Shown: positions 23,601 through 61,872 of the stretch, piece after piece
How the letters are laid out: every line of letters starts with the position of its first letter
Position numbering within the stretch: position 1 is the stretch's first letter
Virus record (IMG/VR): IMGVR_UViG_3300028832_000100
Source: a virus
Taxonomy: Duplodnaviria > Caudoviricetes
Direction: 5' to 3' (one strand)
Length of the DNA: 64,000 bases
Notes under the pieces: generated by a model
What the model saw: only the letters and a program-made list of their open reading frames with translations
The model's database searches: none
Told to the model about the DNA's origin: nothing
Program-made: the position numbers and the translations under genes

Positions 23601-25290
23601 TTCGATGGTATATTTTGCATTATGTTATCGTTAGCCTCTTTATGCTAACCTCTATGAGTATGTAGTTTTCCTCATAGTTCAGACTATATCATTAACCTAT
23701 TATAACCTTTCAGTGAAATAGGTTATTGTGCGCTCGTGCGAGAATTATTGATTTTATCTCTCATCTCGTAGTCGTTGCTCCTTCCACAGACTTTCTCTGT
23801 GGCTTGGATCAGGATTGGGACAAAATTTACTACATCCTTTCCCTGAATTCACACAATTTTCATCTCAACATTACTGTTGAGTGCCTCCGTAATTAAAGGT
23901 TTGGATCGCTGGAACTAAATCTTCCTGTATCTGCCCCAAGAGTGTTAAAATGTGCATGAAGTCTATTGTCTTTTACTGAAACTACTTTTGGTAACTTATC
24001 AATATAAGTATTTACTAATTTTAACAAACCTCTCTGCTCTAATATCAGTTTTGTTATTGGCAGATCAATTTGTTTTAGTATTCCTTCTCCTGTTCCTCTT
24101 GGTGTTTTTGGATCAATAACACCAACTTTTAGAATGTCATACAAAAAAACTGCAAGTTGAGATGGACTTGATGTATTTAATGGGTTTTCCACTATATCTA
24201 CATCAAAAAATCTGTATGGTCCTTTTCCATCCATATCGTCAAAAGGATATTTCTTTCTTACAGCAATTGGATCTTTTCTGTCATTAGCACTTGCATATAC
24301 TCTATCAAGTTTATGTTTTTGCTTCCATTCTTCTATGACAGGCTCGTACTCTTTTAGAGCACTTTTAATTCTCTTATCACAATCTTCCAAAAGGAGATTA
24401 TATTTCTTGCTCAAACGATCACAATAAGAAGTATCTAATGCAATCCCGGTAAGTTCCATAGAAGCAGCGACAGAGATGATTGGGAACTCAATCCTAAACA
24501 GCAAATCCAATAACTTCCTATTCTCTGCTTTATTGTATTGAACCCATTGCCAATCATATAACTTCAATGTCATAAACGGGTCTGTCGCTGCATAAAGAGC
24601 AAATACCTCTGGACTTACAACGGCATAATCTATATCCTTGAAAAGATGTTCTATTGAATACTTCTCAATACTTCCATCAATCTTTGAAATGTACTGATCC
24701 TTCAAGGAGTATGACTTTTCATTCTCGTCTAAAATCTTTGCGGCAACAAGTGTGTCCCAATATATTTTAAGATCCACCCCTGTTGTGCATTTTATTACCT
24801 CGTAGTCAAACTTTGCATTATGATAAACAGTTTTTGTATTCTCTAATCGAGAAAATTCTTGCTTAATATCATCTTCTGAAAGTTGGTCTTTCAACCGTTC
24901 TCCGCTATGAGGGTCAACATGGTTCAATGGAATATATGCATTTTTCATTCCATAAGTATAAATACAAGGACCCATTAACTTACAAGTTAGCGGATCCAAA
25001 CTCATGTTTGTTTCGGTATCTATTGCTATTATTCCGTTCTCTATTGCTTTATTGATATATTGATGCAAAGATTCCCTGTCCTTTATAACAACAGTGTTTT
25101 CTGCATACTTGCCAAGTATTCGATATACTTCTTCACGAATCATTCTTAACTTGGTATCTATATCAACCTTACCGCCTGACCGTTTTCTTACTTCTTTTGG
25201 GGAACTAATCTTGTTGAGTACATTTTTGATTGCTTCTAACGAATCTTGTGGGGAGAAAGAATCTCCCCACAAAGATACTTCATAGCCCAT
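20604..25290 (-). CDS. polA: Family A DNA polymerase (3'-5' exonuclease + polymerase), spliced: exons 25290-23896, 23617-23534, 22532-21783, 20876-20604 (833 aa)
   Basis: Exonuclease motifs DTET/HNAKFD/YAATD; joined junctions give TGRFSSSDPNL|QNIP, GSDFG|QQEPR (motif A) and VHD|ELI (motif C); the 84-nt exon 2 was found manually. Confidence 0.93.
20877..21782 (-). mobile_element. Group I intron polA-I3 (906 nt) with LAGLIDADG ORF
   Basis: P1 UACACGAU/GUCGUGUA with U.G; UGCUGG..CAAUCAGCAG (P4); GACUA / GAUAUAGUC (P7); ends in omega-G. Confidence 0.9.
21022..21639 (-). CDS. Intron-encoded LAGLIDADG homing endonuclease
   Basis: LKLGDGC and LYLDDGS double motif; F.IEE..LL. Confidence 0.85.
   Translation of the reverse strand: MNNKLYQLLLSLKLGDGCYITQNVTENKRYRVSTNSIKRDYVEYKRSILESFGLKTKDIKCFSGYNKNSNMYGITTHVTVETTLVGNMSLKSAIEDLDSYGIILLYLDDGSLHKTKHYMHIYCNSFSIEETNLLIDKIFSFYPQKRCALRFDRKKDGRCFPYVYVPKSVACEMNKDVRDFLISNNIDSLLYKTFLPSQTIESIDS
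22533..23533 (-). mobile_element. Group I intron polA-I2 (1001 nt) with GIY-YIG ORF
   Basis: P1 ACUUCGGU/GCUGAAGU; P4 ACGGG/CCCGU; AGAGACUA and GAUAGUCCG core; ends in omega-G. Confidence 0.9.
22672..23370 (-). CDS. Intron-encoded GIY-YIG homing endonuclease with NUMOD3-like repeats
   Basis: IYKITNTINGKVYIGQT, GYN..PGG, SEDTRRKIS / SQETRNKIS. Confidence 0.92.
   Translation of the reverse strand: MIIYKITNTINGKVYIGQTKKSLDDRWKNHMNRYRNHCDYHLYESMRKYGVENFTVEEIDSADNEDDLNYKEMYWISFYNSNSSEFGYNNTPGGDSNPMDSECVKVRHKRRMQSEDTRRKISEKMTAIRKEHGFSQETRNKISNKLKGNTHGKGKKRPIDAIEATARKRRIKVVATSVSDGSDTIFDSVKSAALWVKKNTEFESLSLKHIMSKIKKSDVCKVEFAGMFWKYI
23618..23895 (-). mobile_element. Group I intron polA-I1 (278 nt), no ORF
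   Basis: P1 CCUU/GAGG; P4 UCAGG/CCUGA; AACGACUA and GAUAUAGUCUG; ends in omega-G. Confidence 0.9.
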
Positions 25291-33157: not shown

Positions 33158-33213
33158 GTGAGGGGAACATCCCCATCAGTTGGTGGACCATGATCTTTCG
33201 ATCAGCCCATGTA

Positions 33214-57300: not shown

Positions 57301-59355
57301 GATTGCCATGCAGATGACACTAATCTGCAAGGTTTTCCAGCAATTCACATGGTTTTCACTAATATATTGCTATATTAGGCTACAAAAAGTTTATAGTTCA
57401 GTTCTGCAACAGCACGTTCTGCCAGCTGCTCTCCAAGATCAAAACCATAATCCTGCTTTGCCTGCCATGCAGCAATGTTTGAATAGTACACGGCAATTCT
57501 ACGCGCTTTTGCAAGCAGAGGCATAGCCTTCATCTCAGCAGTGAGAATAGGAAGATCGTTCTGAGGAATGACAACATTATTATAGTTGTAATTGAATACA
57601 ACATTACCAGTGATTCCGCTAGTAAGAGTGATAGCAGGAGTGCCAGTAGAGTAAATCTGTTCAACACCGTTGTAAGCAACACCCTTGGTAGCAGTATTAC
57701 CATAAACGATAGTACCTGCTTCGGATGCGCCAGTAATGTTCTTCACAAAACGACCAGCGACACCTTCGAGATGTCCGTTGTTAGGATCAACTGCTTCGGT
57801 TACATAGTTAGTAACAACTGTAACAGCTGCTCCATCTGCATAACTGTAGATTTTACCGTTACCATCATCAAGGTAGTTAGTGGTGCCAACCTTGAAGGAA
57901 ACGGTGCCGGGGACTACAGGACCCCAGTTAAGAGCGATTGAGGTAGTAGAATCTGCAAAACTCTTGGATTCTTCAACCTTAGATGCTGTGAAATCGGTGT
58001 CAACCTTTCCACGAGCAAAAGGATTCTCAATCAGATCACCAACGCTTGTCTTACCTTTATTTGAGCCATATGAGTATTCAAGATAGTTTACCAATTGTGT
58101 TACGAATACTTCGCTTATAAAAGTATTCTCTGCATATTTCTATGCAGTTCGGACTATATTATCAGCCAAGATTGTTTTGTCCTCTCTTGGTTGCCAGCTC
58201 TTTCCATTCCACTTGGAATGTACTCTACTCACTTCTTCACAAGAATATTTCTTTCTTGCTATGCTTTCGATAGTCTCTGAACCTCCCACTATACAATGGT
58301 TTGGCTGCTGATTGTCCTTTCGGAGTTTCCAGCAATTTAACTGGTTTTTGTCATTCATGTTACCATGAAAGGGTTACGTCATGCTACATAACCACTCATG
58401 CTCGACATCGGGTAAGTAATTACCAAATCACATTTATCTTGCGTGTAAATCGTTTCCACTTACACTCTTATCATCACTGATAAGATGAGACTATATCATA
58501 GTCCAAACTTGATTTATCCTTATTTGGATTCCATGCACTTCGACTTCACTTGAAGCCTACTCTACTCATTTATTCTCTATTGTTTTTCTCAATAGATATA
58601 CTTTCGATAGTCGTTGAACCTTCCTGCCAAATTAGGCAGACTTGGTTGCTGATTGTCTTAATGGCTAATTTTTAAGACTTCCCAGCAATTCACATGGTTT
58701 TTTCTGCAAACATTACTATTTGCAGCCTCTGTTAAAAGGCAATAAGATTTGGTACGGTAATATTTACCAAATTTAGTGCAAATTTCTTAACATTTTTATT
58801 GCAATATGCACAATTATGCATATTTCTTGATATTACTATCAAGATTAGACTATATCATCATCCAATATTGCTTTTACCCTTTATTGGATGCCTCGCGCTT
58901 CGGAAACTTTTGCTCCTACTCTACTCATTTACTCATCATCATTTTTCTTGATAACTACATTTTCGATAGTCGTTAAACCTTCCGTTCAAAGAACGGCTTG
59001 GATTTTTGTTGTCCTACTGATTGCACTATTTCAATAGGAGTTTCAAAAAGTTCACGAGGTTTTCTACATAATATGAATTTAAGGGCTAACTTCTTAAATT
59101 GTTCTCATATCTGTAGGATCTCAATAAATATTACTATTTATTGCTCCTTTATATGGGAAAGAGTCCCATGTCGGAACGCTGGGTTCCAACGGAGTTCTCA
59201 AACTGCTCAGTGAGAAACTTGGAAGTGTTGTCAAGAAGTCTTGCAACAGCAATCTTCTTGGCTTCAGTAATGCGAGTACCGTTGTGTGCCTTCATGTGAA
59301 CACGGTCGGCAACAGCAAGACGGTTCTTGTACTGTTCAAATAGTTTGTTAGCCAT
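54360..59355 (-). CDS. Major capsid protein (T4 gp23-like), 9 exons: 59355-59160, 58790-58736, 58430-58388, 58091-57393, 56320-56134, 55798-55686, 55353-55245, 54904-54845, 54481-54360 (527 aa)
   Basis: Spliced frame is continuous (1584 nt) with gp23-like motifs PNLIAFDLVITYPM, QAKQDYG.D, ELNYEIDTE, PNYML, GPYLAGT, AVYAPYMP, QGWSTMYD; follows the prohead protease. Confidence 0.93.
54482..54844 (-). mobile_element. Group I intron MCP-I8 (363 nt, no ORF)
   Basis: P1 AGGCU|U / AGGUCU; AAUUGCUGG, CAAUCAGCAGCCAAG, AACGACUA, GAUAUAGUCUA; omega-G. Confidence 0.9.
54905..55244 (-). mobile_element. Group I intron MCP-I7 (340 nt, no ORF)
   Basis: P1 CCAU|UA / UAGUGG; same core motifs; omega-G. Confidence 0.9.
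55354..55685 (-). mobile_element. Group I intron MCP-I6 (332 nt, no ORF)
   Basis: P1 CUGGU|UA / UAGCCAG; core motifs; omega-G. Confidence 0.9.
55799..56133 (-). mobile_element. Group I intron MCP-I5 (335 nt, no ORF)
   Basis: P1 AGAAGU|UA / UAGCUUCU; core motifs; omega-G. Confidence 0.9.
56321..57392 (-). mobile_element. Group I intron MCP-I4 (1072 nt) with GIY-YIG ORF between P6 and P7
   Basis: P1 CUAU|AAA / UUUGUAG; core motifs; omega-G. Confidence 0.9.
56520..57149 (-). CDS. Intron-encoded GIY-YIG homing endonuclease with NUMOD3-like repeats
   Basis: GYIYKTT..NGKIYVGKH..Y.GSG, GYN...GG, HSDETKKK. Confidence 0.92.
   Translation of the reverse strand: MFGYIYKTTDLSNGKIYVGKHHSSKFVGIKYVGSGLLISRIRKKCLQDNIPLEERLSVEMIDSADSLDELNQKEIFWIDKLDSRNPLVGYNKRKGGDCGPGGPMFKGRKHSDETKKKFRTERIGSKNSNYGNRWHQSDELKMLHSALSSGENNGMFGKSQSENQKLLDRLSHLGRRKMSHDVIFPKYRMIQDFNIDAYINQGWYIVSSK
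58092..58387 (-). mobile_element. Group I intron MCP-I3 (296 nt, no ORF)
   Basis: P1 GGUUAU|GU / ACGUAACC; AGAGACUA, AUAUAGUCCG; omega-G. Confidence 0.9.
58431..58735 (-). mobile_element. Group I intron MCP-I2 (305 nt, no ORF)
   Basis: P1 GCCUU|U / AGAGGC; core motifs; omega-G. Confidence 0.9.
58791..59159 (-). mobile_element. Group I intron MCP-I1 (369 nt, no ORF)
   Basis: P1 CUCU|UU / AAGGAG; P4 variant UUUUUG/CAAAAA; AACGACUA, GAUAUAGUCUA; omega-G. Confidence 0.88.
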
Positions 59356-60970: not shown

Positions 60971-61094
60971 TACTCCTGTACCGTTTTTTAGTCGAACCGA
61001 CTATTTTAGAATTTTTTTGTCAGACAAAAATCTGAACAGTGTCTATATAATAATTTAGCAGAAAATTTTTTCGCAAATTCTTATATTTTTCTGA

Positions 61095-61416
61095 AATATG
61101 AACAAAATATGAATGAAATTTTCAAAATGTTAAAAAATCGCTTTAATAACTAGATACTATCTATATATACAATTATTTTTACTAGATATTATATAATATA
61201 TATTATAATATATTTATTATTTACTAGTATATGCGTACACAAGAAATTTGTGAACAAATTGTGAACAAATTATTAAAAATCTATGAATAGTGAACATTCT
61301 ATTACAAATTTGTGAATAAATTATTAACAGTCCGTTATGAACAGATTTCTAAATTGTGAACAAATTATGAATAATATATGAAAAATTTATGAATCATGAA
61401 CAAATTGTGAACAAAA
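61095..61416. repeat. AT-rich region with an array of TRTGAAYA iteron / DnaA-box-like repeats (candidate origin)
   Basis: TGTGAACAA at 61249, 61260, 61355 and 61406; TGTGAATAA at 61311; several TATGAAYA variants; near-pure A/T tract at about 61140-61225. Confidence 0.65.
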
Positions 61417-61872
61417 TTAAACTCTGTATATACTCTCGATTGCTTTTAGATCCGCTTTTATAAGGTTAAGCAATCGTACACAATTCGTAAGGTCATAGTT
61501 TTTGAAATAAAGACTTAACACCATACTGATCTCATCTGCTCTTGCATGTCTTAAAAACATTTGTCTGTTGGATGCCTTCTTACTGAAAAGAAGTATCTGT
61601 AAGAGCATTGAAGAAAGTGTTGTTAATATTTCTTCTGGTGATGAATCTTCCTTTACAATATTTCCATAAAGTTTTGATTTTTTACTGTTATAACTTTTTC
61701 TTATCTTTTTATAAAATTCAGTTACATCTAACTGTCTGTTGTCATTTATAAATTTCAGACAACTCAAATCAACATCTCTGCTAACAACGGCTCTTGACAG
61801 AACTTCTTTTGTGTCAATTCCTTTATCAGCAAGATCTTTAAGCAACAATAAACAATCTGACTTTGTAATCAT
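61417..61872 (-). CDS. Hypothetical protein (start MITKSDC after GGAGA)
   Basis: 151 aa, between the portal gene and the repeat array. Confidence 0.6.
   Translation of the reverse strand: MITKSDCLLLLKDLADKGIDTKEVLSRAVVSRDVDLSCLKFINDNRQLDVTEFYKKIRKSYNSKKSKLYGNIVKEDSSPEEILTTLSSMLLQILLFSKKASNRQMFLRHARADEISMVLSLYFKNYDLTNCVRLLNLIKADLKAIESIYRV

Follow-up and report, generated by a model that had tools for sequence, protein, structure and literature searches.

The question raised by this locus is why a hairpin inside the first intron of a phage capsid gene should resemble the coding sequence that the intron interrupts. The window (the whole stretch of 64,000 nucleotides that was analysed) carries on its minus strand the head module of a T4-like phage, with portal, prohead protease and Gp23-type capsid families that were found here and in relatives. 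The capsid gene (MCP) is interrupted by eight group I introns, and excision of all eight gives a single open frame of 528 codons. A sequence-only reading had proposed that intron 1 contains a degenerate copy of its own ligated exon junction, in the form of a 36-mer within an extra hairpin that follows P2. The gene and the 5' part of the intron are arranged as follows.

59160..59355, minus strand: MCP exon 1, 196 nt; its terminal U pairs with G in P1
58791..59159, minus strand: MCP intron 1 (the 'site A' intron), group I, 369 nt, without an ORF
58736..58790, minus strand: MCP exon 2
59144..59163, minus strand: P1, in which the last four exon and first two intron bases (59163-59158) pair with the guide AAAGGAG (59150-59144)
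59122..59143, minus strand: P2, a 9-bp stem with a GUAA loop

Intron 1 is matched by Rfam RF00028 at 63.3 bits, against a gathering cut-off of 50, and has the conserved P3-P9 core. Its ends are those of a group I intron: it is preceded by an exon U, paired with a G in P1, its last base is G, and its removal restores the frame. Relatives that lack the intron are continuous across the junction and have there, uninterrupted, the same peptide as the spliced exons 1 and 2. The splice site is therefore taken as correct, and the spliced junction stands as the sequence-only reading had written it. P1 was assigned by reading the sequence, while P2 comes from the fold and is an element also of the sister introns. 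The cmscan match to the intron (58826-59106, minus strand) is out of register: it begins within the hairpin considered below (P2.1) and takes the inner stem of that hairpin for P1, so that automatic annotation would shift the 5' splice site by about 55 nt. The arrangement in that alignment, with the 36-mer as the true P1, was rejected, because the stem lacks a U-G pair and the frame is closed 3 codons past the real splice site. A different pairing is possible at the 5' splice site, between exon AUGGGA and intron UCCCAU (59152-59168, minus strand). It loops out the splice site, is mutually exclusive with P1 and is favoured by the minimum-energy fold, and it is also possible in the orthologous introns L021 and L023 described below.

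Three further observations concern the window at large. A ninth strong group I intron (70.8 bits) lies in another gene at 23660-23906, minus strand, and runs P1-P2-P3 without P2.1. There is an Rfam match to DUF3800-XI RNA at 33162-33209, minus strand (57.4 bits, cut-off 37.8), and the intergenic stretch at 61040-61420, from the protease gene to the next gene, is A/T-rich with many repeats of TGTGAACAAAT-like words.

The order of elements in intron 1 is P1, P2, then P2.1, then P3. The 36-mer was located exactly, within P2.1.

59064..59116, minus strand: P2.1 hairpin, 53 nt, between P2 and P3 of intron 1; it consists of an outer stem, a 5-nt internal loop GAACA (59104-59100), a 7-bp inner stem (59099-59093 with 59083-59077) and a 9-nt loop (59092-59084) that contains UUAGCC
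59076..59111, minus strand: 36-mer, the inner part of P2.1, identical to the letters quoted in the sequence-only reading
59076..59098, minus strand: exon-like 23-mer, covering the distal inner stem, the loop and the 3' strand of P2.1
58769..58790, minus strand: first 22 nt of exon 2, which the 23-mer resembles together with base 59160

P2.1 folds at -12.6 kcal/mol (z -4.0), and none of 200 shuffles was as stable. It is indeed an extra hairpin after P2, since it was found neither in the other seven MCP introns nor in the intron at 23660-23906, which makes eight other introns of the window without it. Two orthologous introns occur at the same site, L021:3197-3568 and L023:266-633, in phages whose exon-1 proteins are respectively 69% and 84% identical to that of the window, and the three introns align at 85% mean column identity. 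All three have the P2.1 shape, the GAAC internal loop and the loop motif UUAGCC in common, and differ in their stem sequences. Position and shape are thus constant with the stems changed on both sides; RNAalifold finds four pairs changed on both strands, in a MAFFT register that is imperfect. Because shape and loop motifs have been retained in three orthologues while the stems differ, it is concluded from this comparison of sequences that the element probably acts as RNA structure, as the inner part of a peripheral hairpin of this intron lineage.

A near-identical copy of the element is present in L029, from another sample. Otherwise, hairpins of this type were seen solely in the orthologous introns at the same site and in no other gene, so that the same hairpin does not recur in unrelated genes. 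Searches of GenBank phages gave nothing beyond core similarity to introns of Staphylococcus and Thomasclavelia phages, and pattern scans of IMG/VR with the intron-1 core and hairpin motifs gave chance matches alone, none of them within an intron. A source for the hairpin elsewhere in the 64-kb window was rejected, the best non-self score being 16, equal to the junction score. The hairpin resembles the peripheral P2.1 helices of group I introns, in being an extra stem-loop between P2 and P3 that keeps its shape while its stems change. It differs from them in that a tertiary partner is not demonstrated here: a kissing loop between L2.1 and L9.1 was considered and rejected, as it has 6 bp in L023 but fits weakly and inconsistently in the window and in L021.

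Within this hairpin the exon likeness is confined to 23 nt, is lineage-specific and is codon-phased. The 23-mer matches positions 196-218 of the CDS (the last base of exon 1 and the first 22 of exon 2) at 18 of 23 bases. All five mismatches fall at third codon positions and all 16 first and second positions are identical, which reproduces the count in the sequence-only reading. Differences are likewise restricted to third positions against the L001 allele (4/4) and the L048 allele (3/3). Exon 1 contributes only one base to this significant block, and the rest of the 36-mer gives a different picture. Where a 1-nt insertion had been described between the 5' and 3' blocks, 4 nt in fact stand opposite 3 nt with no match among them, for an overall identity of 25/35 plus one indel. 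The 5' part, which had been read as captured exon at 7 of 9 bases, is hairpin sequence common to L021 and L023, which themselves have no exon likeness. Altogether 25 of the 36 bases are common to the L021 hairpin, including nearly the whole 5' block. What had been described as a copy of the whole ligated junction is therefore narrower, with the exon-1 side being ancestral hairpin sequence. The portion of P2.1 that differs from the orthologues, namely the distal 20-23 nt, is also the portion that matches the exon.

One explanation would be coincidence. P2.1 would then be a fast-evolving, A/U-rich hairpin in which three compensatory pair changes and some small indels happen to mimic a quasi-palindromic, A/T-rich piece of exon 2, with no history and no function. 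We consider this less probable than the reading favoured below, though a rival to be taken seriously, and the outcome of the statistical tests depends on how much sequence is compared. When the whole of intron 1 is aligned with its own ligated junction, the local score of 16-17 is equalled by 13 of 2000 shuffles, and about 3% of real 95-nt windows of the genome score as high. In an 8 x 8 matrix of introns by junctions the intron 1 pair comes top at 17, with unrelated pairs reaching 16. After correction for eight introns the whole-intron test is not significant, which counts for coincidence and against any captured exon sequence.

Tests on the hairpin alone, which is the one additional element that this intron has, point the other way. 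Against its own junction, 2 of 3000 shuffles scored as high; against the best of 14 alleles the score is 20, reached by none of 3000 shuffles (tail estimate 2e-4) and by none of 1929 real 61-mers. Such matches are thus not common among shuffles, an outcome that would have counted against the sequence-only reading had it gone the other way. The window hairpin scores 16-20 against the junction alleles, compared with 6-10, the mean for shuffles, in the case of the L021 and L023 hairpins. This last result has been counted on both sides: orthologous hairpins without similarity are in keeping with coincidence, and a likeness that is local and lineage-specific is in keeping with the arrival of a patch of exon sequence.

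An exhaustive ungapped scan set every 23-mer from the eight introns against the full spliced CDS, a total of 5.05 million pairs. Two places reach at least 18/23. One is 59098-59076 on its own junction, which makes up about 3% of the intron-by-CDS pair space; at the other, one of the five mismatches is at a third position. Across the 642,084 positions of DNA that were compared, every match of at least 18/23 to the 23-mer falls on one or another allele of this MCP site. Five mismatches would all land at third positions with a probability of 3e-4 to 6e-4; this codon-phase pattern was noticed post hoc.

Several points nevertheless favour coincidence. Once the 5' strand AAG is set, pairing dictates the 3' strand, so that few of the changes are independent; the 25 bases common to the orthologous hairpins (among them the loop motif within the tract) are ancestral and include those at which three of the five third-position mismatches fall. 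In addition, the P5-P6 and P7.1 stems diverge among the orthologues as much as P2.1 does, and rapid stem turnover alone could yield a new stem. Even so, the joint probability of chance comes to roughly 1e-5 to 1e-3, the upper figure allowing for post hoc choices. The similarity to coding sequence, at the intron's own gene, thus exceeds what chance would readily give, although the whole-intron tests are weaker.

The alleles of relatives suggest where such a sequence might have come from. The 23-mer is nearer to alleles that lack intron A (20/23 for L048 and 19/23 for L001) than to its own exon. The suggestion that coding sequence was captured from another MCP allele is therefore among those that suit the 23-mer best, and fails for the 5' part. 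The highest identity possible against any real allele is 21/23, since two of the third-position bases would alter invariant residues (F to L and N to K). Both of these non-allelic bases are common to the orthologous hairpins, one lying within the conserved loop motif and the other closing a stem pair.

The reading that we favour, with a rough probability of 0.45, is that in a structural hairpin a short patch of coding DNA from MCP has replaced the distal half. The source of the copied stretch would probably be a co-infecting relative without this intron, and plausible routes are template switching or short-patch conversion in recombinational repair, for example during homing. Short common strings may have aided the exchange, namely three T's to the left and AAAT to the right, with a 7-mer following P2 and a 6-mer inside P3 lying farther away. 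Retention of the patch might be explained by the ability of that exon segment to fold back, with the two non-allelic bases restoring the conserved loop motif and one stem pair. The element is most likely a recombination scar still serving as RNA structure. This was one of the possibilities raised in the sequence-only reading, and it survives in a reduced form, in which the non-allelic bases keep the loop motif and the stem pair. No nuclease function is needed for it, and none is shown.

The two outer strings are the following.

59116..59122, minus strand: 7-nt string after P2, equal to exon positions -20 to -14 in L001/L028/L048-type alleles; possible left microhomology
59056..59061, minus strand: 5' strand of P3, AACCTC, equal to exon positions of about +42 to +47 in several alleles; possible right microhomology

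They are the anchors of a longer alignment, and both are present in the exon. The P2-P3 linker (59122-59054) is collinear with exon -20 to +48 of L001/L048-type alleles, with 48 of 74 columns identical and a global alignment score of 17, compared with a null of -2.5 +/- 3.3; none of 2000 shuffles scored as high. Of the 7-mer, 6 bases are already present at the same place in L021, so that the anchors look like pre-existing microhomologies and not captured sequence.

A copied patch is argued for by the exhaustive scans, by the codon pattern and by the greater closeness to alleles without intron A. Several observations weigh against it. The patch is known from a single lineage, and no donor allele of near identity with a contiguous tract was found among the alleles compared, the best being 20/23. 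Bases of orthologue type occur inside the tract, which makes a simple contiguous conversion a misfit without later reversion or patchy repair. The direction of change can be read only tentatively, from three orthologues that are themselves mosaic, with no outgroup: P4-P6 joins the window with L021, the 3' half joins the window with L023, and P2.1 joins L021 with L023. Two other origins, namely deletion from an allele with two introns (A plus B) and derivation from the 5' exon of a site-B intron, were rejected, as the sequence after the block is not that of the site-B intron and the 3' exon begins at site A.

The proposed mechanism has parallels. In templated (template-switch) mutation clusters, a cluster of changes turns a sequence into a copy of a similar one that is nearby or allelic, between short common strings. 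Microhomology-mediated illegitimate repair is documented in T4 intron homing, in the section of PMC2988022 that treats it, and provides a precedent for a patch of exon sequence. As far as these accounts go, the present case is like both, in that a cluster of changes has led to a copy of a similar sequence with short shared strings at its bounds. It is unlike the template-switch clusters in that here we infer the event, and in that two bases of the tract are not donor-like.

The surroundings of intron 1 raise the further possibility that the 23-mer concerns homing. In closely related phages there are at least four insertion sites (A', A, B and C) within about 40 nt of the MCP gene.

Site A', 2 nt upstream of A: L046 and L048, with a 284-aa GIY-YIG gene
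Site A, the site in the window: window, L021 and L023, without an ORF
Site B, 17 nt downstream of A: L001 and L028, with an HNH gene
Site B, 17 nt downstream of A: L024 and L025, without an ORF; exon 1 is 99% identical to that of the window
Site C, about 37 nt downstream of A: L040-L045, with a 309-aa GIY-YIG gene

This hot spot consists of the codons for DMGLFKKFALNLVNITV of the capsid gene (window 58736-59200, minus strand; L001, L024, L028, L040, L046 and L048). The exon 1 proteins of its phages are up to 99% identical, and the cargo varies (none, HNH or GIY-YIG). The exon flanks vary synonymously in step with the resident intron (GCC CTT occurring with site-B introns), and to judge from the sequences this looks like co-conversion together with P1 adaptation. 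There is also a second, shorter likeness between intron and exon, in that the start of the site-A' intron, UAAGAAU..., echoes the downstream exon start, UAAGAAA... (L048:477-500 and L046:2494-2517).

The 23-mer could thus function in DNA as a pseudo-homing site, recognised by a homing endonuclease whose target is this part of the MCP gene. It might serve as a landing pad for the entry of an ORF into P2.1, as an orphan autorepressor operator left after loss of an ORF, or as a decoy. Models for the first two exist in T4. In the nrdD (sunY) intron, a likeness to the exon junction is seen in the sequences on either side of the I-TevII ORF (Loizos, Tillier and Belfort 1994, as reported in PMC3984707), and the T4 td intron contains an operator for I-TevI, further putative operators being described for the introns of nrdB and nrdD (PMC2988022). 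As those cases are described in these sources, the window intron is like sunY in having a sense copy of homing-site sequence in a phage group I intron, at the position of an endonuclease gene, and like the I-TevI operator in having an intronic homing-site-like sequence that does not require cleavage. On the same descriptions it is unlike sunY in having no ORF and an uninterrupted copy, placed within a conserved hairpin, convincing only on its 3'-exon side and known from sequence alone. It is unlike the I-TevI operators in that those overlie the promoter of the intron's own endonuclease gene, and intron 1 has no such gene.

Other observations are in keeping with a pseudo-homing site. The GIY-YIG and HNH genes of the sister introns at A', B and C are all located between P2 and P3, which is the P2.1 position. 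On the 5' side of site B the block takes in 18 nt, among them the GCCCUU with which site-B introns form P1, and matching restricted to first and second positions would suit a nuclease that reads conserved codon positions. We nevertheless regard a pseudo-homing site as rather improbable. None of the three known site-A introns (window, L021 and L023) has an ORF, in five sister introns no likeness to the junction or homing site was seen in the leaders or flanks of the ORFs, and no operator-like match was found in the ORF-bearing sisters. The suggestion that the hairpin marks the site of a past endonuclease invasion accordingly finds no backing in these introns. Furthermore, the exon-1 side is not mimicked, a decoy or landing pad has no clear benefit for an intron without an ORF, and the gain and loss of an ORF that left the hairpin architecture intact would be unparsimonious. 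The more specific proposal, that the 23-mer is a live site, namely an intact copy of the MCP target of co-circulating HNH or GIY-YIG endonucleases in an ORF-less intron, at the place where the sister introns keep their nuclease genes, is one to which we give decidedly low odds.

The remaining possibility is a role at the level of RNA. The 3' strand of the inner stem complements the junction from -1 to +5 (six bases, 59083-59078, read from the sequence) and could hold the 3' exon in the manner of a P10, the canonical P10 of intron 1 being only about 2 bp; alternatively, the 5' strand could compete with the substrate and act as a splicing switch. Such a role seems very improbable. It is unconserved, as in L021 and L023 the 3' strand of the hairpin is unable to pair with the exon, and we know of no arrangement in which P10 is supplied from outside the guide sequence. 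It would also leave unexplained both the codon phasing and the sense similarity in the loop.

Homing-site-like sequences in phage introns are the main circumstantial evidence on the way in which self-splicing introns and homing endonucleases came together as composite mobile elements. To our knowledge, all of the intronic cases adjoin an endonuclease gene. If the present likeness is a coincidence, it is a caution about A/T-rich hairpins. If the 23-mer is a live pseudo-homing site, it would be a natural pre-invasion intermediate of the model in which endonuclease genes invade introns. The setting is one of competition, over about 40 nt, among four or more types of intron in three cargo states. 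There, an intact exon-like patch carried by an ORF-less intron, at the place that usually harbours the ORF, would be informative, either as a scar of homing repair or as the state that precedes invasion.
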